Assembly (NCBI GenBank): GCA_043775925.1
Contig: JAYVRW010000170.1
Coordinates: 6,578-70,577, forward strand
Direction of reading: 5' to 3'
Length of the DNA: 64,000 bases
Source: Blastocatellia bacterium
GTDB lineage: Bacteria; Acidobacteriota; Blastocatellia; RBC074
Positions 2,800 through 37,231 of this stretch are shown here, one piece after another. A model generated the notes under the pieces. That model ran no database searches and was not told where the DNA came from. It saw only the letters and a program-made list of their open reading frames with translations. The translations under genes were made by a program, and so were the position numbers. Positions within the stretch are counted from its first letter, which is position 1; the number at the start of each line of letters is the position of its first letter.

Positions 2800-3392
2800 A
2801 AAAAATTGGCGTATTAATTTCCGGGCGCGGCTCGAACATGTTGGCGCTGGCTGATGCTATTAACGAAGGTCGCATTGCAGAGGCTGAAATTGCTGTGGTC
2901 ATCAGCAATACTGCGGAGGCGGGCGGTTTAGCGAAAGCGCAGGAACGCGGTATCGCTACGGCGGTGTTGGATCATCGTGGCAAAAAGCGCGAAGAACATG
3001 ACCGCGCAATGGCAGCAGAGCTTCGCAAATATGACGTAGATTTGGTTTGCCTCGCGGGTTATATGCGCTTGCTTTCGCCCTGGTTCATCCGCGAATTTCC
3101 CAATCGTATTTTAAATATTCACCCCTCATTGTTGCCCGCGTTTCCAGGCTTGGAGGCACAAAGACAAGCAGTCGAGTATGGCGTGAAAATTACAGGTTGC
3201 ACGGTGCATTTTGTAGATGAAGAACTCGATCACGGCGCAATCATCAAGCAAGCGGTTGTTCCCGTTTTGTCCGGCGATGACGACCATTCTTTAGCGCAAC
3301 GTATCTTGGTAGAAGAGCATAAAATTTATGCTGAAGCCGTGAATATGGTGCTGCGTGGAGCCTTCAAAATTGACGGGCGCAAAATTAGCTAA
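2796..3392 (+). CDS. purN: phosphoribosylglycinamide formyltransferase
   Basis: 'ISGRGSNM', 'NIHPSLLPAF', 'GCTVHFVDEELDHGAII' PurN motifs; AAGGA SD. Confidence 0.9.
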   Translation: MKKIGVLISGRGSNMLALADAINEGRIAEAEIAVVISNTAEAGGLAKAQERGIATAVLDHRGKKREEHDRAMAAELRKYDVDLVCLAGYMRLLSPWFIREFPNRILNIHPSLLPAFPGLEAQRQAVEYGVKITGCTVHFVDEELDHGAIIKQAVVPVLSGDDDHSLAQRILVEEHKIYAEAVNMVLRGAFKIDGRKIS

Positions 3393-3706
3393 GAAAATTT
3401 ACGCCGCCTGACTTTATTTCTTACCTGAAGCAGAAAATACGCTGGTTGCAATAGCAATCTGACCATGCTACACATGCATTCCCCTGTAATTAAATATAAA
3501 TTAAGTCTAAGCCCTAATCAGTTGAATGTTTCCTCTCACCCTCCGACTAACGGCACTGCGCCCGAAGTTCAAATTCCTGGCTGTGCATCCGGCTTTATCC
3601 CGTATTACCGTAGCACACTACAATTTCTATTTTGGCAAATGCTAAATAAGGCATTTGTCTAAGTTGCAACCCTGCGGCTTAATTAATCCCAGTCTAGGAG
3701 CAGTAA

Positions 3707-4832: not shown

Positions 4833-6119
4833 TTACGCGAGGCTGGAATCTGCCGAGCGAACTTCAATCGTTTCAGTCGGTGGCAGCAAACGCCATTGTT
4901 GCGGTGTATAGAACATCCCGCGCACAGATTTTCCAGGCAGCACTTTCAGGATGTACTGACGCGGTTTCAAATCATACGGCGCAACGGAACCGCGCTTACT
5001 GAAGATGCCGTCTACTTTATAGATTCCCGGCGTTAATCCGAATTCGCTGCAATCGAATTCAATAATGCCTTCGTCGGGCAACACTCCAATTTCCGGGCCG
5101 TTAATTGCTGTGGTCAAGTGCGAATACAAACGATCATCCGGTGAGTAGAAGAGCATTTCAAAAATCGGGTCTTGGATGGCGCTGTAGGTTTTGTAATGAA
5201 TCCGCGCAATCAATTTATCCCCAGTCGAAATGGTATCCGTTTCCTGTCCATCGCCGTTGTGGAATTTCACGCTGATAATTTCAGCGTCCTGACCATATAA
5301 TGAAGTCTTCGTTTCAATCGCTAAGCCGGTATTATTCTGCGCGATTTGTGCAGTTGATTTTTTCGCAAACAACACTTCATTGTAATAAACGCTAATTACT
5401 TCCTGGGGCTTACCGCTGGCACGAACTTCGCCTTTTGACAGGAAGACTACGCGATCACAGAGACGCTCAACGGCAGGCATATCGTGCGAGACGAAAGCGA
5501 TGGTCATTCCGTCACGTCGCAGTTCTTCGATACGCTGCTGACATTTGCTTTGGAAATTCGCGTCACCGACGGCGAGGACTTCATCAACTAATAAAACGGA
5601 AGGATGGATATGCGCGGCGACGGCAAATCCTAAACGAACATACATGCCCGAAGAGTAGCGTTTGACAGGTGTATCAATGAATTTTTCCATTTCGGAAAAC
5701 GCGACGATCTGATCAAATTTTTTGGCAACTTCGGCTTTCTTCATGCCCATAATTGAGCCGTAAAGAAAAATATTTTCGCGTCCTGTTAATTCAGGATGGA
5801 AGCCTGCACCGACTTCAATCAACGAAGCCACGGAACCGTTGACTTCGATTTTGCCTTCGGAAGGATAAATAATTCGCGCCAGCAATTTTAGTAATGTACT
5901 TTTCCCTGAGCCATTCGGACCAATAAATCCAATGGTTTCGCCACGTTTGATTTGTAAATCTACCTCTTTCAGCGCGAAAAATTCATCGCTTCCGGCTAAG
6001 CCTCTGGAGCTTGGCAACAGGTTTTTGGTCACCCGCGCCAATTCTTCACGAATAGATTTTGAACCCAAGCGGCTGAGGCGATATTTTTTGGAAACTCGAT
6101 CTAAGACAACAATACTCAT
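4833..6119 (-). CDS. wzt: polysaccharide/O-antigen ABC exporter ATP-binding protein (Wzt/TagH type) with C-terminal substrate-binding domain
   Basis: Walker A 'GPNGSGKST', signature 'YSSGM', Walker B '[11 protein letters not shown]'; start set at ATG 6119 ([13 protein letters not shown]); the ORF-track N-terminal extension was rejected. Confidence 0.85.
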
Positions 6120-6207
6120 AAAACTGTTTCGAGTTTCGAGTTTTGGGTTTCGAGTTATGAGAGACCTTCTTACCTCGAAACTCGAAATCCGAAAACCCGA
6201 AACTAAT
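6120..6207. repeat. intercistronic imperfect palindrome built of TTTCGAG/TTTCGGG heptads (PAL-1 family, copy 1) between wzm and wzt
   Basis: Left arm gtttcgagtttcgagttttgggtttcgag pairs with right arm ctcgaaactcgaaatccgaaaacccgaaac. Confidence 0.6.
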
Positions 6208-7131
6208 TTAAACCAGATCTGCGAACTCGCGTTCCAGATGTTTGAAATATTTATACGAACCCCAGAGTAGGAACAGTGAAATCGCTGTCGCGATTCCAAG
6301 TAATTTCAGGTCGGGAGTTAAACCCTGTACGACGCACTTGCGATAACTGTCAATAATCACAGCCATCGGATTTAGCGTCATATAGGCGGTATAAAGCGCT
6401 TCGCTTTTGTCTCTGACACGCGAGGCTGGGTACAAAATCGGAGTGGCAAACATCCAGATTTGAATGACCAGTGGCATCGCATAGCGAACGTCACGATACA
6501 GTACGGTGAAGGCTGACAGCAAAAATCCCATGCCAACTGTAAAGATTAACTGGATTAGCATGACTGGAACGATAAAAATGACGTTCCAATTAATCGTGAC
6601 CTGATCGTGATAGAAAATCAGCAACCCGATAAAAATTACCGATGCCACGAGAAAGTCAAAGAAAGCCGCCAGCACACAAGACAGTGGAATAATTTCACGC
6701 GGGAAATAAATCTTGGTGATGATGTAAGAATTCGTAATCAGGCTGGGAATAGCAAACGACATGGAAGTCGAAAAGAACGTCCACGCCAATAATCCCGTGT
6801 AGGAAAATAACGCGTAAGGCATTCCGGTATCGCCCTTCATTCCGGCAAAATACGAAAAGAACAAGCCAAACACCAGCATCAGCGAAAGTGGTTGCAAGAC
6901 TGCCCACACTGCGCCCAGCGCCGTTTGTTTATAGCGAATTTTTAATTCACGTTCCGTTACTAATTGCAGCAACTCGCGGTGATTAATCAATTCTTTGAGA
7001 TGGGAAAAAGTGCTATTACTCCACTCAACTTGTCCCTTTAACTCCTGATCCGAATGCTCGATGTCGTGAGGTGGGGGGGTAGTGAGGAGAGCCTCTGATG
7101 TGACTTTGTTGTCAACTGCTGTAGCAGGCAT
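6208..7131 (-). CDS. wzm: polysaccharide ABC-2 type exporter permease (Wzm/TagG type)
   Basis: Six TM segments; '[20 protein letters not shown]' and 'KIYFPREI' ABC-2 motifs; start set at ATG 7131 with AGGAG SD (the ORF-track extension was rejected). Confidence 0.8.
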
Positions 7132-12816: not shown

Positions 12817-12893
12817 GCGCCTGTAGCTCAGCTGGATAGAGCACTAGACTTCGAATCTATAGGTCGGGGGTTCGAATCCCTCCGGGCGCACCA
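12817..12893 (+). tRNA. tRNA-Arg (anticodon UCG)
   Basis: Cloverleaf read by hand: acceptor GCGCCTG/CGGGCGC, anticodon loop CTTCGAA, T-loop TTCGAAT, CCA encoded. Confidence 0.9.
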
Positions 12894-13982: not shown

Positions 13983-15209
13983 ATGACTAATGAAGCGATT
14001 CTTGCGCTGGAAGATGGGCGCATCTTTCGTGGCACAGCCTGCGGCACTTCCGGTGAGTGTACGGGGGAAATTGTTTTCAATACTTCGATGGCGGGCTATC
14101 AGGAAATTCTCACCGATCCATCCTACGCCGGACAAATCGTGACGATGACGTATCCGCAGATCGGCAACTATGGCGTCAATCCCGAAGACGTTGAATCGCG
14201 TCGTCCTTTCATTCAGGGATTTGTCGTCCGTGAGATGTCCGAAGTCACTTCCAACTGGCGCGCTACGATGTCGCTGGATGATTATCTCAAGGAATACGGG
14301 ATCGTTGGAATTTCTGAAATTGATACGCGGGCGCTGGTTCGCCACATCCGCGAAAAAGGCGCGATGCGTGCCTGTATTTCTTCCGTAGACCTCGACGAAA
14401 AAAGTTTGATTGCTAAAGCCCAGGCTGCGCCGTCAATGCTTGGACGAAATTTAGTGGATGAAGTCACGTGTGGCGATAGCTACGAATGGTCAGAAGCCAT
14501 TGAAGCCATCGCCGGAGAGAAACTCCACCGCACCGAAGCGCTTGACGAATTCGCAGTGAATTTCACTCCGCACGAAGCCTTGGAAATGAGCGGCACTATC
14601 AACACGGAATCTTTCCACGTCGTCGCTTACGATTTCGGTATCAAATATTACATTTTACGTTATTTGGCTGCGCTGGGTTGTCGTGTGACCGTAGTTCCGG
14701 CGCGAACTTCCGCTGCCGATGTTTTAGCCATGAATCCCGATGGAGTCTTTTTATCGAATGGTCCCGGTGATCCGGCTGCGCTCGAACCCATTGTTGACGA
14801 AATCAAAAAACTGGTTGGAAAAAAGCCAATTTTTGGAATTTGTCTGGGACATCAGGTTTTGGGAGCAGCTTTTGGCGGGACGACTTTTAAATTAAAATTC
14901 GGACATCGTGGAGGCAATCAGCCGATCAAAAATACACGGACCGACAAGATCGAAATCGCCGCGCACAATCACGGCTTCGCGGTTGATCCGAACAGCCTGA
15001 ATCAGGACGAAATTGAATTGACGCATTGGAATATCAACGACCATACACTGGCTGGAATCCGCCATCGGACGCTGCCAGTATTTTCCGTGCAATACCATCC
15101 TGAATCCAGCCCGGGTCCGCACGATTCAGCGTATTTGTTTCATGAGTTTATTGCGGATATGAAAGCGTTCCGCGATGGCGTCAAGCAAAAAGGACAGGGG
15201 AAGAGTTAA
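13983..15209 (+). CDS. carA: carbamoyl-phosphate synthase small (glutamine amidotransferase) subunit
   Basis: CarA N-domain plus 'GICLGHQ' class-I GATase triad region. Confidence 0.9.
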
Positions 15210-15217
15210 GAATTTTC

Positions 15218-15312
15218 AGACAGGATTTACAAGATTTTTTGCAGGATGAACAGGACTTACGTGCAAGAATATGACTTGTAAATCTTGTCTTAAAATCTTG
15301 TTAATCCTGTCT
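15218..15312. repeat. MITE/REP-like element with 21-bp terminal inverted repeats AGACAGGATTTACAAGATTTT / AAAATCTTGTTAATCCTGTCT (PAL-2 family, copy A), 8 nt after carA stop
   Basis: Arms are reverse complements with 1-2 mismatches; the internal segment has a partial extra arm copy; a related copy lies at 35821-35880. Confidence 0.6.
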
Positions 15313-15349
15313 AAAAAAAACTCTTCCCCGAAAATCTTTTTCCTGAAAA

Positions 15350-15637
15350 CTATGAACCCTGCCAATGTTTTTTTGGGCTTGGCAATTTCTCCGGCAAGTC
15401 AATCGCGTCATCCACCAGCACATCAAGACAGACATTTGCTAATCTTGCGTAGCGCAAGAGTTCCAATAAATTAGGTTCTCTATAACCAAGTTCATTTCCG
15501 GCAATCGCCATATAGCCAATTGTTTCTTCCAATCCTAACCGATACAACATTTCAGTTTGTGACAGATTTAAAGCCAGTCGAATCTGTTGGAGCTTTTCTG
15601 CAAGGCGTTGAGGTCTGGGTCTGGCTAAGCGTCCCAT
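15350..15637 (-). CDS. XRE-family helix-turn-helix transcriptional regulator
   Basis: 'LQQIRLALNLSQTEMLYRLG' HTH_XRE; ATG with GGGAGGA SD. Confidence 0.7.
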   Translation of the reverse strand: MGRLARPRPQRLAEKLQQIRLALNLSQTEMLYRLGLEETIGYMAIAGNELGYREPNLLELLRYARLANVCLDVLVDDAIDLPEKLPSPKKHWQGS

Positions 15638-15888
15638 CAGGAAATTCCTCCCGATGAAAACGCTTGCAACTTATTGTTAAAGCTGCTATTTCTATTTACA
15701 AATACTTGCGTTCCTAGAAACCACGTCGCCGAGAGCCTACTCAGTTTGTGCTCTCCGACGGAATCCATCACGACTTGTTTAGAGACGGACTACGCATTTT
15801 GCTTAGTTCAATTGTCAAAGGTTAAGGAGTAAAAATACCAGACTCAGAAGCAATTACCAATGCTTTGTGCGGGTATCTTTACAGTATA

Positions 15889-15914
15889 TTTCCTCATGAA
15901 ATACCGTGAGGAAA
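15889..15914 (+). promoter_or_regulatory. 5'-UTR hairpin immediately upstream of SD of Cys-rich protein gene
   Basis: TTTCCTCA-tgaaataccg-TGAGGAAA 8-bp stem ending 1 nt before the AGGAG SD. Confidence 0.35.
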
Positions 15915-15927
15915 AAGGAGAAAAATT

Positions 15928-16554
15928 ATGTCGAAAAAAACTTCTCGTGTATCATTCGTTTTGTTGGCTGTAGGGTTAATTGCTGTCGTAGCGATCCTTG
16001 TCGCAGTGCAAAAATCTGCTACCGCAAACAGTCGTTCATCACTGAGTGCGGCTATAATTATAGATGATGAAGCAGTGAGAAAGTATAAAGGAATGGCAGC
16101 TTTATCATCTGAAGAAAGAAAAAATATTTTTCGTGAATCTTCAGCAAATGATAAAAGTGCGCTGTGGCAAGTACATTTTTCAGAGTATAAGAAAGCTCAC
16201 CCAGACCTTTCACCGGAGCAAATAAAGGTTCTGGAAGAGGCGGCGAATTTAGCAATTCCGCTCACTTTCAGTCTTCCTGGCAATCAGCAAATCAAGAATG
16301 CGGTAATTGGTAAGGCTCTACAAAATTTGAGGAATCATGCAGTAGCTACTTTTTCGCAAGACGAAGCAAGAAAGTTATTTGCCCAATTAGGGAATGCTGA
16401 AGCTTCTATTGTAGTAAGAAGGGACTGTAATTGTAGCACTATTGATACTTGGTGTGGTGGAAATTATTGTCGTGACCACGCATATAACGGGTGTAGTACA
16501 TCAGATTGGGGATGCGGAACTCTCTGGATGGCAAGTTGTAATGGTGGTTGCTAA
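15928..16554 (+). CDS. secreted/membrane-anchored protein with C-terminal 8-Cys module (candidate disulfide-rich peptide precursor)
   Basis: N-terminal signal anchor; 'RR' then C-terminal 'DCNCSTIDTWCGGNYCRDHAYNGCSTSDWGCGTLWMASCNGGC' (8 Cys in the last 42 residues); AGGAG SD; AT-rich codon usage. Confidence 0.5.
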   Translation: MSKKTSRVSFVLLAVGLIAVVAILVAVQKSATANSRSSLSAAIIIDDEAVRKYKGMAALSSEERKNIFRESSANDKSALWQVHFSEYKKAHPDLSPEQIKVLEEAANLAIPLTFSLPGNQQIKNAVIGKALQNLRNHAVATFSQDEARKLFAQLGNAEASIVVRRDCNCSTIDTWCGGNYCRDHAYNGCSTSDWGCGTLWMASCNGGC

Positions 16555-16663
16555 AGTTTTTCAGGAAACGCAGTTAGAGTTACTTTAACTGCGTTTCTAT
16601 TTGTTGGTTCTTAGTGAGTAATGACCAATCACAAAAGAGGTAGCTCTAATCGGAGAATAACTT

Positions 16664-17524
16664 ATGAAAATAAAACGTATAGCACTGCTCTTTGTGGTTT
16701 CTTTGCTATTAACCTTACTGATCTCTCCACTTCGTGGGTTTGGCTATGGTATTAAAGCGTCGTCATTAGTCGGATTTACCTTGTATTTTATTTTTACAAT
16801 AGTAGGTATTCGAAGGTCGGCTAATGTCTTACAACCTGCGCAAATCACGATGGCAATTGTTGCGGGGCTTTTCCTGATTCAGCTACCTATGAGGATTCGT
16901 TTTTTCACCGCAGGGTTATTTTCTTTCCCGGATTTTATCTTACATTTTCTTGGCATTATGTCTGGACTTGCATTCACTAACCTTCGTAGTCCGCAAAGAT
17001 GGTTGACTACTGGGCTGGGTTTTTTCCTGACATTAACTATGTGCGTTAAGGGCTATGATATGTGGCTTCATAGACTTAATTACGGGACATTTACAGGTAA
17101 GGTTTTATACTCCTTACCAGCAAAGTTTGAAGCCTTCGACGAAAGTAAATCCTTGATAACAGATAAAGATTTTACGAATAAGGTAGTTATCCTTGATTTC
17201 TGGAATACGAGTTGTGGTATCTGTTTTCAAAAATTTCCACAGCTTCAGAAGTTTTACGAGAAGCATAAAACTGAGACGACGCTTCGCATTTTAGCAGTTG
17301 ATACGCCGCTTGAAGATGACAAGGAAGGTGACGCTTTTAAAGCAATAAAAGATGAAGGACATAGCTTCCCTGTAGTTATTACCAAAGAAGCTAACTTAGC
17401 GGAACAATATGGAGTGACGGGTTATCCAACTACTTTTGTGATTGACCAAAAAGGCAATATTGTATTTCGAGGCGATCTTGAACACGCAACAAAGTTAGCG
17501 GAAGAGCTAATAAAATCAAGCTAA
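16664..17524 (+). CDS. membrane-anchored TlpA/ResA-like thiol:disulfide oxidoreductase (4 TM + thioredoxin domain)
   Basis: Four N-terminal TM helices; 'ILDFWNTSCGICFQ' CxxC active site; cis-Pro 'GYPTTFVIDQKGNIV'. Confidence 0.7.
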   Translation: MKIKRIALLFVVSLLLTLLISPLRGFGYGIKASSLVGFTLYFIFTIVGIRRSANVLQPAQITMAIVAGLFLIQLPMRIRFFTAGLFSFPDFILHFLGIMSGLAFTNLRSPQRWLTTGLGFFLTLTMCVKGYDMWLHRLNYGTFTGKVLYSLPAKFEAFDESKSLITDKDFTNKVVILDFWNTSCGICFQKFPQLQKFYEKHKTETTLRILAVDTPLEDDKEGDAFKAIKDEGHSFPVVITKEANLAEQYGVTGYPTTFVIDQKGNIVFRGDLEHATKLAEELIKSS

Positions 17525-17563
17525 TATTCTGAAAGCATGCTAATCCAATCTTTCTTAGTCTCT

Positions 17564-18937
17564 TTACAAATCGTCAAAATAAACCACGTGCGAACTCCGC
17601 CAAATGTTCGCAGGAATTGATCCCCGTTGCGCTGAAGTCAGCAGGATTTTGAATTCGTCGTCGGCTAAGGCGGGGAGGCGTTGCAATAAATTTACAGGAG
17701 CATCTTCCAGCTTTTCCGAAACAAAGGGCGTAACACGCGCTAATTGTTTGAGCATCGCGTACCGATGATCGTTGTCGCGTCCGAAGTGTGAATCGTATTC
17801 GCTCAGCATTAACCGCACGTCCGCGCCTTCGTCGAGAAAATGTGTCAGCAGGCTGGCGGCTAAGGTCACTGCTTTTTCAAAAGCAGAAGTTCGCAGTTCA
17901 CTGTTCGCAGCACCTTCCTGCTTACTATCCTCTGCTCCCTGCTCCCTGTTCCCTTCATAAGTATCCAAAGCAATAGTCACGCGCCAATCGTCATCTCTGG
18001 TAAATTCGCGCACCATTAATTTTGAAGCTTTGGCGGTGGCTTTCCAATCAACATAACGCGGATGATCGGTCGGTGTGTAGTGGCGAATCGCGTACAAATC
18101 ACTGCCGCTCCCCTTTTGTTCGCTTTCCATTTGCCCGTGGGTCAGCGGCAACAAATGATAGAAATCATCCAGCGGGAGCGGGTTTGGATATACAGTGACT
18201 TCTCCACTGGCTTCGACGTAGCGGCGGCGTTCGACAAATCCAAACGGAAATCTGGTAGTGATCGTAAATCCGCGCACTGGAAAAACTCCGCGCTGATCGA
18301 AGGTGCGGGTGATGCTGGCTTTGGCTTTGGCTCCGGCGGGAACGATGGCGAAGTGCGCTAAATCTCCGATGGATTGATCGGGAATTTTATTTGCCTTGCG
18401 AAGCGCAAAACGATTTTCTTTATCGGTTGCGGCGACAACCAATGAAAATGAAGGGAGGAAACGTTTTTGATTCGTGATGGTAGCTTCAAGTTGTGCTGGT
18501 TCACCGGCGAAAATATGGTCGGGAAAACGCAGCGCGACGCCTAAATCTCCAATGCTCAAACGCGAAGCGACACCAGAAATAATCATCGTTGCCATCAACG
18601 CCGCCAGCACCATGTAAAGCAAATTATTTCCAGTGCTAACCGAAGCAATCGCTACGATGAGGATGAAAGCGATGAACATCCATCCTGCGCTCATCACATT
18701 CATCGCAAGGCGTGATTGCAGGAATTCCATCTGAACATTTTTGGCAAGGCGCGGAACGACATACAGTAAAATACACAACGCCAAACCAAGCGCAATTTTT
18801 GAAGCTAAGGAAGCAACCTCAAAATCACCAGAGCTGGTGGCGGCAGCCGCAACCAATGCTGATCCAATCGCCCCAAAAATCAGGATGGACGAGACGAACA
18901 GGAAGCGGAGAAATTTTTTATCCTTCAGGAATTTCAA
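17564..18937 (-). CDS. DUF58-family protein (MoxR-associated) with extended multi-TM N-terminus
   Basis: DUF58 core (~residues 150-400, 'VYPNP'); several N-terminal TM helices; start uncertain (track start is TTG). Confidence 0.6.
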   Translation of the reverse strand: MKFLKDKKFLRFLFVSSILIFGAIGSALVAAAATSSGDFEVASLASKIALGLALCILLYVVPRLAKNVQMEFLQSRLAMNVMSAGWMFIAFILIVAIASVSTGNNLLYMVLAALMATMIISGVASRLSIGDLGVALRFPDHIFAGEPAQLEATITNQKRFLPSFSLVVAATDKENRFALRKANKIPDQSIGDLAHFAIVPAGAKAKASITRTFDQRGVFPVRGFTITTRFPFGFVERRRYVEASGEVTVYPNPLPLDDFYHLLPLTHGQMESEQKGSGSDLYAIRHYTPTDHPRYVDWKATAKASKLMVREFTRDDDWRVTIALDTYEGNREQGAEDSKQEGAANSELRTSAFEKAVTLAASLLTHFLDEGADVRLMLSEYDSHFGRDNDHRYAMLKQLARVTPFVSEKLEDAPVNLLQRLPALADDEFKILLTSAQRGSIPANIWRSSHVVYFDDL

Positions 18938-34690: not shown

Positions 34691-35812
34691 ATGTTTTATC
34701 ACCTGTTTTACAAATTACTATTCGAGCAATATTCACAGGTCTATCCATTTCTGAAGGCTTTCAATGTTTTCAAATACGTGACGTTTCGTACGGCCTACGC
34801 GACGATTACTGCGTTGGTCATTAGCTTGGTACTTGGACCGTTGCTGATTCGCAAGCTGCGCGAATTTAAATTCGGACAGGAAATTCGAGAAGATGGCCCG
34901 GCGCATCATCAGGCCAAGAAAGGTACGCCAACCATGGGCGGAGTCATGATTATTGGCTCTGTGCTGGTTTCCTCTGTGCTGTGGGCAGATTTGCGGAATA
35001 GTTATTTGTGGGTCGCGTTAGTCGGCACGTTGGGTTTTTCGCTGGTTGGATTTCTGGATGATTATCTGAAGATCAAAAATAAACGAAGCCTTGGCTTGAA
35101 CGGAAAACAAAAACTTTTAGGACAATTTAGTACCGCATTAATCGTTGGTCTGATGCTGAAATATATGACCAATTATAGCTGGGTTTTGAGTGTTCCATTT
35201 TTCAAGGAATTCCAGCCGATCCTGCCGTTTGTCGTGTATCTCGGCTTGATCATGCTCTTCACCGTTTTTTGTTCCAACGCCGTGAATTTAACCGATGGAT
35301 TGGATGGTTTGGCGATTAGTGTCACAGTCGTCGCAGCCTCCGCGTTGACGGCTTTGGTTTATGTTTCAGGTCACGCGAAGTTTGCCGAATATCTTGATCT
35401 GGTGCGAACGAGTTCGGTGACAGGAGATTCTCCGATTGCTGAGTTGACAGTGTTAGGCGGAGCGTTAGTCGGAGCCAGCCTTGGCTTTCTCTGGTTCAAT
35501 GCCCCACCCGCCGAAGTTTTCATGGGAGATGTGGGGTCACTTGGCATTGGAGGCGCACTGGCAACCATCGCGGTCATCATCAAGCAGGAAGTAGTGTTGG
35601 GAATGATTGGTGGAGTTTTTGTTATCGAAGCCTTATCCGTGATGATCCAGGTTGCTTCATTCAAGACGACAGGTAAGCGCGTTTTTAAGATGTCTCCGCT
35701 GCATCATCATTTTGAATTATCAGGCTGGAAAGAATCAAAAATCGTTTTTCGTTTTTTAATTGCGGCTTTGTTATGTGCATTTTTGGGGCTTTCGACTTTG
35801 AAATTGAGATGA
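34691..35812 (+). CDS. mraY: phospho-N-acetylmuramoyl-pentapeptide transferase
   Basis: 10-TM profile; '[13 protein letters not shown]', 'MGDVGSL' MraY motifs. Confidence 0.9.
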
Positions 35813-35820
35813 GTAATACG

Positions 35821-35880
35821 AGACAGGATTCACAAGATTTAGAACAGGATTTTTAGGATAAACCTTTGTTCATCCTGTCT
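35821..35880. repeat. MITE/REP-like palindromic element (PAL-2 family, copy B) in mraY-murD intergenic region
   Basis: AGACAGGATTCACAAGATTT ... CATCCTGTCT, 8 nt after the mraY stop; related to 15218-15312. Confidence 0.6.
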
Positions 35881-35887
35881 GATAAAA

Positions 35888-37231
35888 ATGGAAATTCAAG
35901 GCAAAAAAATTCTGGTGGTTGGATTAGGTAAGAGTGGTCTTGCCGCCGCAGAATTTTTGACTTCACGCGGTGCGATTGTGACGGCGAATGATGCGCAGCC
36001 TGCTGAAAAAATTGCAGAGGTGGTTAATCGGCTGATAGAAAAAAATATTGAAGTTGTCGCAGGATCGCATCCGATTCCGTTATTTGAAAATTCAGATTTA
36101 ATTGTAGCCAGTCCGGGTGTTCCCTTAGCGCTGGAATGTTTTCAAAAAGCCAAAGCCGCAGGCGTTCCCATCATCAGTGAAATTGAATTGGCAGCGCATT
36201 TTTTACGCGGACGGTTGATTGGCATTACGGGGTCAAATGGAAAAACTACCACTACTACCTTGATCGGCGAAGTTTTGACGAATGCCGGATTTAAAACGCA
36301 GATTGGTGGAAACATCGGCACACCATTGATTTTATTGGCTGATGCTTCGTGTGACGATGGCTTGACGGTGATCGAACTCAGCAGTTTTCAACTGGAAGCG
36401 GTTGAATCGCTCCATCTTTTTGCCGCAGTGATGCTGAACATTACACCGGATCATTTGGATCGTTACGATTCGATGAATCATTATGCGGCGGCGAAAGAAA
36501 ATATTTTTCGCAATCAAACTTCTCAGGATTTAGCTGTTCTGAATGCTGATGATGAGCGTGTCGCAGCCATGACCACTGCCGCGCACAATGTTTTTTTTAG
36601 CAATAAAAAGGAATTGGAAGAAGGAATTTTCCTACGCGGTAATGACGTGATATGTCGTGCCAATGGGGTCGAAAAAGTTTTGATTGCTTGTGATGAAATC
36701 GGCATTCGTGGTGCGCACAATTTAGAAAATGTCATGGCAACGTTGGCGATTGGTTTAGCTTGCGGCGTCGAGCCGGATTCAATGCGCAAAACCATTAGCG
36801 AATTCAAAGGCGTCGAACATCGCCTTGAATTTGTTGCTGAAATTGACAGCGTAAATTTTTACAATGATTCAAAAGCCACCAACGTTGATTCAACCATCAA
36901 GGCACTTGAAGCGTTTGAGCGTGGCGTAATCGTGATTCTGGGAGGCAAAGATAAAGGCAGTGATTATGCGCCGCTTGCTTCACTCGTTCGAGAACGTTGC
37001 GAGCAAGTAATTTTAATTGGGTCGGCGGCTGACAAAATCGCTGCGGCACTTGAAAACACGAAGCCATTGCATCGTGCTACTACGATGGAAGACGCCGTTA
37101 AGTTAGGCAAAAAACTTGCGCAACCTGGGAATACGGTTTTATTGGCTCCGGCCTGTGCGAGCTTTGATATGTTCGATAATTACGAGCATCGTGGCAGAGT
37201 TTTTAAGTCAGCAGTTTTGCAATTGGCTTAA
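35888..37231 (+). CDS. murD: UDP-N-acetylmuramoylalanine--D-glutamate ligase
   Basis: '[12 protein letters not shown]' P-loop; MurD domain order. Confidence 0.9.

Follow-up and report, generated by a model that had tools for sequence, protein, structure and literature searches.

Part of the genome of a Blastocatellia bacterium (Acidobacteriota) carries a cassette of three genes, which encode a probable small regulator, a secreted precursor ending in a cysteine-rich module and a membrane-bound thioredoxin-like protein (hereafter the redoxin or partner). The window analyzed is a stretch of 64,000 nucleotides (assembly GCA_043775925.1, contig JAYVRW010000170.1, positions 6,578 to 70,577), and coordinates below are positions in this window unless a locus is named. 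The cassette is a real, well-delimited three-gene unit, its precursor belongs by sequence to the family of the bacteriocin fulvocin C, and genes for such precursors and for such redoxins recur together in other genomes. The reading that we favor, with moderate confidence, is that of a fulvocin-type bacteriocin with a dedicated membrane folding catalyst and a divergent regulator. The original prediction, made from the sequence alone, had proposed a novel toxin or signal module with a folding catalyst or an immunity protein; the functional idea largely survives, and the claim that the peptide is novel does not. The three open reading frames (ORFs) on which it was based were confirmed. The features of the locus are the following.

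15365-17563, strand not applicable: strain-variable AT-rich segment with the three-gene cassette, delimited by blastn against a close relative and by GC content.
15213-15317, strand not applicable: imperfect palindrome flanked by the stop codons of carA and of the regulator gene, a hairpin resembling repetitive extragenic palindromes (REP) or miniature inverted-repeat transposable elements (MITE), from folding and repeat searches.
15350-15637, minus strand: gene for a 95-residue small regulator, probably of the Cro/Xre helix-turn-helix (HTH) type, divergent from the toxin gene; weak HTH matches.
15638-15927, strand not applicable: divergent intergenic region, presumed by its position to hold the promoter and operator.
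15928-16554, plus strand: gene for a 208-residue predicted pre-pro-bacteriocin of the fulvocin C family (NF033852, BLASTP, AlphaFold2).
15928-16026, plus strand: predicted Sec signal peptide, residues 1-33, with a basic n-region, a 20-residue hydrophobic helix and AxA motifs.
16027-16422, plus strand: helical pro-domain, residues 34-165.
16423-16551, plus strand: predicted mature 43-residue module with eight cysteines, D166-C208 (invariant cysteines, alignment to P01547).
16564-16598, plus strand: terminator-like hairpin between the toxin and redoxin genes (16-bp stem, 3-nt loop, T-rich tail).
16664-17524, plus strand: gene for a 286-residue membrane protein, a putative thiol-disulfide oxidoreductase with five transmembrane (TM) helices and a ResA/TlpA-like domain (Pfam, AlphaFold2, Foldseek).
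16664-17083, plus strand: five-TM domain, residues 1-140, from the AlphaFold2 model and without a library match.
17213-17224, plus strand: active-site CxxC motif, C184-G-I-C187, invariant in 36 homologs.

Residues 64-208 of the precursor span positions 1-149 of the 150 positions of the NCBIfam profile NF033852, 'bacteriocin fulvocin C-related protein', with a score of 114.8 bits for a cut-off of 35 (E = 6e-33). The earlier view of an undescribed peptide system, matching no recognized family, is thereby overturned; the family in which the toxin is placed is named rather than well characterized. An exhaustive HMMER search, which covered 1.84 billion cluster representatives, retrieved 767 related clusters at E ≤ 1e-3 and 262 at E ≤ 1e-10. 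A word-index homology search was uninformative, returning three relatives of the toxin and one relative of the TM domain alone. BLASTP aligned the precursor over its full length with a 202-residue precursor from Myxococcus (P0088), with an E value of 4e-25, 27% identity and every cysteine matched. The 90%-identity cluster of P0088 includes UniProt P01547, 'Bacteriocin fulvocin-C', together with full-length precursors from M. fulvus. P01547 is a 45-residue peptide purified from M. fulvus; the purification is that of Hirsch (1977) and Tsai and Hirsch (1981), as cited in PMC8708641. Eight cysteines are located in the last 42 residues of the window protein, as originally reported. These residues (C167, C169, C176, C181, C189, C196, C204, and C208) and two glycines (G197 and G206) are invariant in a 47-sequence alignment, full-length alignment being possible with 46 single-domain homologs. 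Exactly eight cysteines are present in the last 50 residues of 109 of the 151 top relatives. On this sequence evidence the precursor belongs to the fulvocin C family. The toxin is thus an additional member of a named, barely studied family and not a new kind of peptide.

Mature fulvocin C starts directly after the sequence ...AAGNK of its precursor, and the equivalent position in the window protein follows R164-R165, a site at which the original prediction had already placed the start of the cysteine-rich module. The predicted mature product is D166-C208, a peptide of 43 residues in which four disulfides are expected. The AlphaFold2 model of the precursor (predicted local distance difference test, pLDDT, 86.4; predicted template modeling score, pTM, 0.76) contains a helix at residues 7-33 and a helical bundle at residues 47-151, followed by the cysteine module. 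The pro-domain formed by this bundle had no solved structural relative. The N-terminus had been described as a signal anchor. A cleavable signal peptide appears likelier (A31-T32-A33 followed by N34), judging by the AxA-type motifs present at the aligned cleavage position in homologs.

Additional observations concern other members of the family. The C-terminus of P01547, taken from the peptide sequence of 1981, reads ...GWVYCACNGNFY, and M. fulvus genomes (P0295/P0088) encode ...GWVYACNGDCFY. The CNGxC motif is invariant in the family, which suggests errors at the end of the deposited sequence, where the placement of the final cysteine is also affected. The homolog P0003 (locus L005, 152-925; 63% identical) matches residues 1-167 and then continues with 90 unrelated residues that are rich in Arg and Ser and free of cysteine; this homolog is likely to be a frameshifted pseudogene devoid of the toxin module. 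Many family members of 300 to 400 residues combine two or three tandem helical pro-domains with a single cysteine module (P0004-P0039; loci L126, L127, and L129-L131). In the alignment, some actinobacterial members bear RRxFL twin-arginine-like signals in place of Sec signals.

The product of the gene following the toxin gene matched the Pfam families AhpC-TSA (1.4e-15, 57.7 bits for a cut-off of 26), Redoxin (5.5e-15, 55.9 bits for a cut-off of 26.6), and Thioredoxin_8. The NCBIfam scores were 64.9 for ResA (cut-off 170), 56.9 for StoA (cut-off 210), 50.9 for DsbE (cut-off 123), and 26.2 for TlpA (cut-off 230). Because these scores are far below the curated cut-offs, the partner is classified by sequence as a member of the thioredoxin-like/redoxin superfamily that is not an orthologue of ResA, StoA, DsbE, or TlpA. 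Homologs of about 285 residues are numerous, and the named ones originate from Pyrinomonadaceae and other Acidobacteriota, in which they are labeled 'TlpA disulfide reductase family protein'. The AlphaFold2 model (pLDDT 93.4, pTM 0.82) contains helices at residues 2-24, 29-51, 58-86, 88-106, and 111-140, followed by a thioredoxin fold. The protein had been described as a CxxC thioredoxin domain fused to a four-TM anchor; the catalytic domain was correctly recognized, but the model contains five helices instead of four. Foldseek retrieved DsbE, ResA, StoA, TlpA, and SdbA with template modeling scores of about 0.8, the E value being 2e-9 for DsbE and ResA. In an alignment of 36 homologs, C184, C187, and the cis-proline P255 are invariant, and lysine and arginine residues are concentrated in the N-terminus, in the loop between helices 2 and 3, and in the loop between helices 4 and 5. 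The predicted topology places the N-terminus in the cytoplasm and the catalytic domain in the periplasm.

The five-TM domain had no match in Pfam or NCBIfam. Among the same 36 homologs, P89 is invariant in this domain and no cysteine is conserved in residues 1-140, C127 of the window protein being one of the variable positions. Identification of the domain as DsbB, VKOR, or CcdA-DsbD was rejected for lack of a conserved cysteine pair. The mean pairwise identity is 61% for the redoxin half of the partner and 36% for the TM half. Homologs restricted to the TM domain are encoded directly downstream from family genes in Proteiniphilum (locus L124, 140 residues) and in a metagenome-assembled genome of the Rikenellaceae (locus L091, about 150 residues). 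Since it stands alone in these two loci, without a redoxin, the TM domain has a role of its own.

To sample loci, the core motif GCGxxWxxxC[ND]GxC was back-translated and scanned in one genome per species. This motif covers about 46% of the family, and the counts per phylum are therefore those of a sample rather than a census. At least 119 loci matched, and 95 of those listed hold a true family member according to the hidden Markov model. Every ORF of the listed loci was compared with the window redoxin and then with an iterated profile. Among the 95 listed loci, 34 have a redoxin gene no more than 600 bp away from the family gene, for an expectation of 1.6 (Poisson P ~ 1e-32). In almost all cases the linked redoxin gene immediately follows the family gene on its strand, and the products have 275 to 320 residues with four or five hydrophobic segments; three such ORFs were present elsewhere in the 866 kb of the listed loci. 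In the first pass, linkage was observed for 23 of 47 listed loci of the Bacteroidota and 3 of 7 of the Acidobacteriota. The reciprocal comparison used six redoxin homologs (41 to 60% identity), chosen solely for lying on long contigs, and a family gene was immediately upstream in all six. The toxin and redoxin genes thus form a real co-conserved pair and not a chance association, as the original prediction had proposed to check by a search of genomic neighborhoods.

When the neighbors of the 95 listed loci were clustered, neither a protease nor an exporter proved to be conserved, an ABC ATPase being present in seven loci. No protease, transporter, or enzyme for RiPPs (peptides made by ribosomes and modified post-translationally) was found among the ORFs of the window cassette, in agreement with the initial description, and PADLOC and PHROGs gave no defense-system or phage assignment for the cassette. 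Other recurrent neighbors are lineage-specific and comprise Wzy_C-like membrane proteins, PadR, and DUF1573 Ig-like proteins. The latter proteins (about 130 to 150 residues, PF07610, 1.5e-22) are a recurrent third operon member in 14 listed loci of the Bacteroidota, upstream or downstream from the toxin-redoxin pair (for example L124, 4748-6374, and L089, 992-2833). The precursors of loci L124 and L091 start with a short hydrophobic stretch ending in cysteine, followed by a ...YSCDP motif, and these N-termini look like lipoprotein signals. In Fodinibius salsisoli (Balneolota, locus L107), two single-TM thioredoxin-like proteins of about 177 residues with a CGPC motif are encoded on either side of the family gene and on the opposite strand (765-1313 and 3077-3625). 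In this locus, redoxin and toxin gene are associated in another form, without the five-TM fusion.

The 95-residue protein encoded divergently from the toxin gene is probably an HTH regulator, on the basis of sequence matches that are weak in every library but consistent. The scores were below cut-off for Pfam HTH_3 (14.9 bits for a cut-off of 23, E = 0.029) and for NCBIfam RstR (1.3e-4); the other matches were phrog_8 (0.0014), PADLOC HTH_VI (0.004), and the Protein Data Bank chains of 434 Cro, C.AhdI, and Xre (E = 0.3-0.7). The matches were concordant with assignment of the gene to the XRE family, although no Pfam or NCBIfam score reached its cut-off. Homologs of the regulator occupy the same divergent position in loci L002, L004, and L125. 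The type of regulator varies by locus: an XRE-like homolog in L002 and L125, another HTH_3 protein in L131, and, in L126-L130, a sigma-54-type response regulator, encoded divergently, together with a histidine kinase encoded convergently. In the latter loci, which are of the Pyrinomonadaceae type, the regulators are located at about 1350-2900 and 4850-6570, the kinase is of the HAMP type, and a DUF4126 gene is adjoining. A sigma-70 consensus scan of positions 15638-15927 found no site, and a scan for sigma-54 (-24/-12) sites upstream of the toxin gene found none in the window and seven related loci. The sequence GGAG is present 9 nucleotides before the ATG at 15928.

The hairpin at 16564-16598 is the sole terminator-like site in 15150-17700. 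All eight loci examined, the window included, have a strong hairpin 3' of the toxin gene; the sequences are unrelated, and several have U-tails. A hairpin after a structural gene is the usual layout for an abundant transcript with attenuated read-through into accessory genes. The hairpin is probably an attenuator, which would lead to production of more toxin mRNA than redoxin mRNA.

The edges of the cassette were defined by comparison with a close relative (L132, GCA_043736395.1), whose carA product falls in the same 90%-identity cluster as that of the window. Homology between the two genomes (blastn, 82-86% identity) ends at window position 15364 and restarts at 17564, and the variable segment is therefore 15365-17563. 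The order of the flanking genes is the same in both genomes, with LepB and carA on the left and DUF58, MoxR, an FHA protein, and a Ser/Thr kinase on the right. In L132, the slot (L132 8327-9730) holds a gene for a 467-residue serpin (PF00079) in place of the cassette. Thus, the intergenic position between carA and DUF58 carries alternative cargo in different strains. A homologous regulator-toxin-redoxin trio is present in a metagenomic contig (L125) between genes for a pyrroloquinoline quinone (PQQ) dehydrogenase and an HZS-alpha-like protein, a chromosomal context different from that of the window cassette.

The composition of the cassette is AT-rich and foreign. The GC content of positions 15218-17560 is 0.398 for a window mean of 0.463, which is about 3.8 standard deviations (sd) below the mean and the lowest value among all equal-sized windows of the 64 kb (sd 0.017). 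At third codon positions, the GC content (GC3) of the genes for the cysteine-rich protein (0.297) and the redoxin (0.352) is the lowest among the 50 ORFs of at least 150 codons in the window (mean 0.443, sd 0.048). The GC3 of the regulator gene (0.396) is unremarkable. The AT-rich character that the original prediction had estimated by eye was borne out by these values, and the proposed horizontal acquisition agrees with the foreign composition, with the replacement by a serpin gene in L132, and with the presence of the trio elsewhere in L125. Repeat searches and an Rfam scan found no integrase, tRNA gene, or direct repeats flanking the segment, and no insertion mechanism can be named for this reason. 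The Rfam scan detected a tRNA gene at 12817-12890 (RF00005, 69.9 bits), which is located 2.5 kb to the left of the variable segment, upstream from a small ORF resembling iron-trafficking proteins, LepB, and carA, and does not adjoin the insert; the remainder was sub-threshold hairpin noise.

A MITE-like element had been proposed as the left edge of the insert. The palindrome at 15213-15317 is real, with 26-nucleotide arms (15213-15238 and 15292-15317) that are 92% complementary and a predicted RNA fold of -39 kcal/mol (z = -6.8). It is part of the backbone and not of the cargo, since the homology with L132, a genome without the cassette, extends across it. A second, shorter copy is located at 35821-35881, between the plus-strand ORFs 34691-35812 and 35888-37231. 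Both copies share the arm AGACAGGAT(T/C)(T/A)ACAAGATTT, and the element appears to be a REP/MITE-like repeat that is dispersed in this genome.

Fulvocin C (P01547) is the known peptide that most directly bears on the cassette. The eight-cysteine modules align cysteine for cysteine, including the GCGxxW...CNGxC core, and both precursors consist of a signal peptide, a helical pro-domain, and the cysteine module. The two systems differ by the host, a member of the Acidobacteriota instead of a myxobacterium, and by the presence in the window of the TM-redoxin and the HTH regulator, the TM-redoxin partner being found in none of the three sampled loci of the Myxococcota. The catalytic domain of the partner shares with ResA, CcmG (DsbE), StoA, and TlpA a thioredoxin fold with an extra N-terminal beta-hairpin, the CxxC motif, and the cis-proline, and a membrane-tethered, extracytoplasmic location like theirs is predicted for it. 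The known proteins have a single anchor, whereas the window partner has five predicted TM helices; their CEPC, CPTC, or CVPC motif is replaced by CGxC; and the linkage is to a toxin gene instead of genes for maturation of cytochromes or the spore cortex. The invariant K190 of the partner occupies the position of Glu80 in ResA.

Bacteriocins with their own thiol-disulfide oxidoreductase exist, which makes the initial analogy to sublancin and BdbB apt: pediocin PA-1, thermophilin, and sublancin require the dedicated enzymes PedC, BlpG, and BdbA/B, respectively, and each is a disulfide-dependent peptide encoded beside a CxxC thioredoxin-fold protein that allows or promotes proper disulfide bonding (PMC4919988). 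These peptides are produced by Firmicutes, have one or two disulfides, and are exported by C39-type ABC transporters following synthesis with double-glycine leaders. In contrast, the window system would combine four disulfides, a large pro-domain, Sec export without a transporter, and the periplasm of a diderm, and the five-TM fusion of the partner is unrelated in architecture to PedC or BdbB. The cassette contains neither the peptidase-ABC transporter nor the modifying enzyme by which RiPP and class II bacteriocin clusters are recognized. EntV of Enterococcus faecalis, a Sec-secreted pro-peptide that needs DsbA and cleavage by GelE (PMC6606811), offers another parallel, since both are pre-pro-proteins with a signal peptide and an active C-terminal fragment that depend, or in the window are proposed to depend, on a disulfide catalyst of the thioredoxin fold and on release by a general protease of the host. 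EntV differs by its single disulfide, by the use of a general DsbA not encoded in the operon, and by the absence of sequence relationship to the window protein.

The mechanism that we propose would proceed as follows. The precursor, in which a signal peptide and about 130 residues of helical pro-domain precede the 43-residue module, would be exported via Sec, and the redoxin gene would be reached by read-through of the hairpin attenuator. The five-TM domain would hold the CxxC domain at the periplasmic surface of the membrane, where it would meet the emerging eight-cysteine module and form or, more likely, shuffle the four disulfides, for which 105 pairings are possible. A host protease, not encoded by the cassette, would then release the 43-residue peptide, a candidate bacteriocin by homology with fulvocin C, to which antibacterial activity is attributed by analogy. 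The small divergent HTH protein would control expression, and the TM domain may also provide self-protection. In this scheme, we infer the redox direction, the cleavage site, and the role of the regulator. Isomerization is favored over net oxidation because the locus offers no quinone-linked or CcdA-type partner and the TM domain no cysteine relay; shuffling alone needs no net electron flow. The CGxC motif, which is CGYC in several homologs, is reminiscent of DsbC and PDI more than of ResA or TlpA. This likeness is only a hint, since other partners have CKPC or CAPC.

Several observations weigh against a dedicated folding catalyst for a fulvocin-type bacteriocin. Domains of the ResA/TlpA type are classically reductants, and the cassette contains no redox partner of the DsbB, VKOR, or CcdA type, which leaves net oxidation unexplained. 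The dipeptide of the CxxC motif varies among partners (CGIC, CGYC, CKPC, CAPC, and others), and their redox potential is therefore not expected to be uniform. In the first pass, redoxin linkage was found in none of the 31 listed loci of the Actinomycetota and none of the three of the Myxococcota, the lineage of the prototype; since these bacteria make family members without the partner, the latter is not intrinsically needed for folding. The presence of the TM domain alone beside family genes in L124 and L091 fits immunity better than catalysis. A dibasic site at the start of the module is found in 3 of 143 located family modules, so that the RR site of the original prediction agrees with the start of mature fulvocin C but is not conserved. 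Finally, activity within the family is known for fulvocin C alone, and the window protein is 27% identical to its precursor.

Some of these observations lead to the proposal that the partner is primarily an immunity protein, which we consider unlikely, although it is the most credible of the alternatives. The TM domain would shield or occupy the target of the toxin, the CxxC domain would reduce toxin re-entering the periplasm, or both, and folding would be left to the Dsb proteins of the host. A small multi-TM gene directly 3' of the structural gene is in the classic position of an immunity gene, the cassette contains no other candidate for this function, the TM domain occurs without redoxin in two loci, and its family-specific invariant residues indicate more than a greasy anchor. 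The reductase activity typical of ResA/TlpA-type folds, which is established enzymology, would also be in keeping with this role. However, the producers among the Actinomycetota and Myxococcota have neither such a gene nor another conserved neighbor, the redoxin half is better conserved than the TM half, and a reductase needs an electron source such as CcdA or DsbD, none of which is linked. Moreover, the known thioredoxin-fold proteins linked to bacteriocins are all maturation factors (PMC4919988; PMC6606811). The partner may also be bifunctional, acting in both folding and immunity.

The cysteine-rich protein might instead be a secreted or surface protein with a signaling or structural role, for example an autoinducing peptide to which the adjacent regulators respond, folded by the redoxin. 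In the Pyrinomonadaceae-type loci, genes for a histidine kinase and a sigma-54-type response regulator stand on either side of the pair, the companions in the Bacteroidota are DUF1573 Ig-like proteins, Wzy_C-like proteins, and PadR, the two precursors of the latter phylum described above look like lipoproteins, and two or three copies of the helical domain, as found in many members, would be unusual for a mere leader. We nevertheless regard this explanation as improbable: the sole member characterized so far, purified fulvocin C (UniProt P01547), is antibacterial, two-component control is also established as common for bacteriocins, no sigma-54 promoter was found upstream of the family gene in the window and seven related loci, and the patchy, strain-variable, and compositionally foreign distribution is typical of competition genes. 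Chance proximity of a housekeeping ResA, CcmG, or TlpA orthologue to a cysteine-rich gene has one observation in its favor, namely that ResA, StoA, and DsbE give the highest NCBIfam scores. This explanation is hardly tenable in view of the distance of these scores from the family cut-offs, the adjacency in 34 listed loci for 1.6 expected, the six positive reciprocal comparisons, the absence of the redoxin gene together with the toxin gene from L132, and the lack of adjoining ccm or res genes. A ResA/CcmG housekeeping role is effectively refuted by these scores, the linkage, the reciprocal comparison, and the joint absence from L132. We therefore retain the combination of a fulvocin-type bacteriocin with its own membrane folding catalyst and divergent regulator as the preferred reading.

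In the searchable literature, fulvocins were found in lists alone, and we found no published description of the five-TM-redoxin partner, of its lineage-restricted linkage, or of the architecture of the precursor. The partner appears to be undescribed. Diderm carriers of the pair include Acidobacteriota and Bacteroidota, among which are gut Rikenellaceae, Muribaculaceae, and Proteiniphilum. A broader proposal, on which we place little confidence, is that the pair may represent a class of bacteriocins, widespread among diderms, with four disulfides and Sec-dependent export. In this class, the partner would combine a five-TM immunity module with a dedicated periplasmic disulfide isomerase, and the large pro-domain, triplicated in some members, would serve as a new type of intramolecular chaperone or of delivery domain instead of a simple leader.

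The peptide fulvocin C has been known since 1977-81. The locus and the comparisons indicate that the peptide forms the C-terminus of a precursor about 200 residues long and that hundreds of clusters, from at least five phyla, make up a large family. For annotation, a 'TlpA disulfide reductase family protein' encoded beside such a gene should not be taken for a cytochrome-maturation factor. The two-gene unit may provide a compact route to the heterologous production of four-disulfide antibacterial peptides, and the locus is suited to testing the way in which disulfide-rich toxins are folded or neutralized by diderm bacteria.

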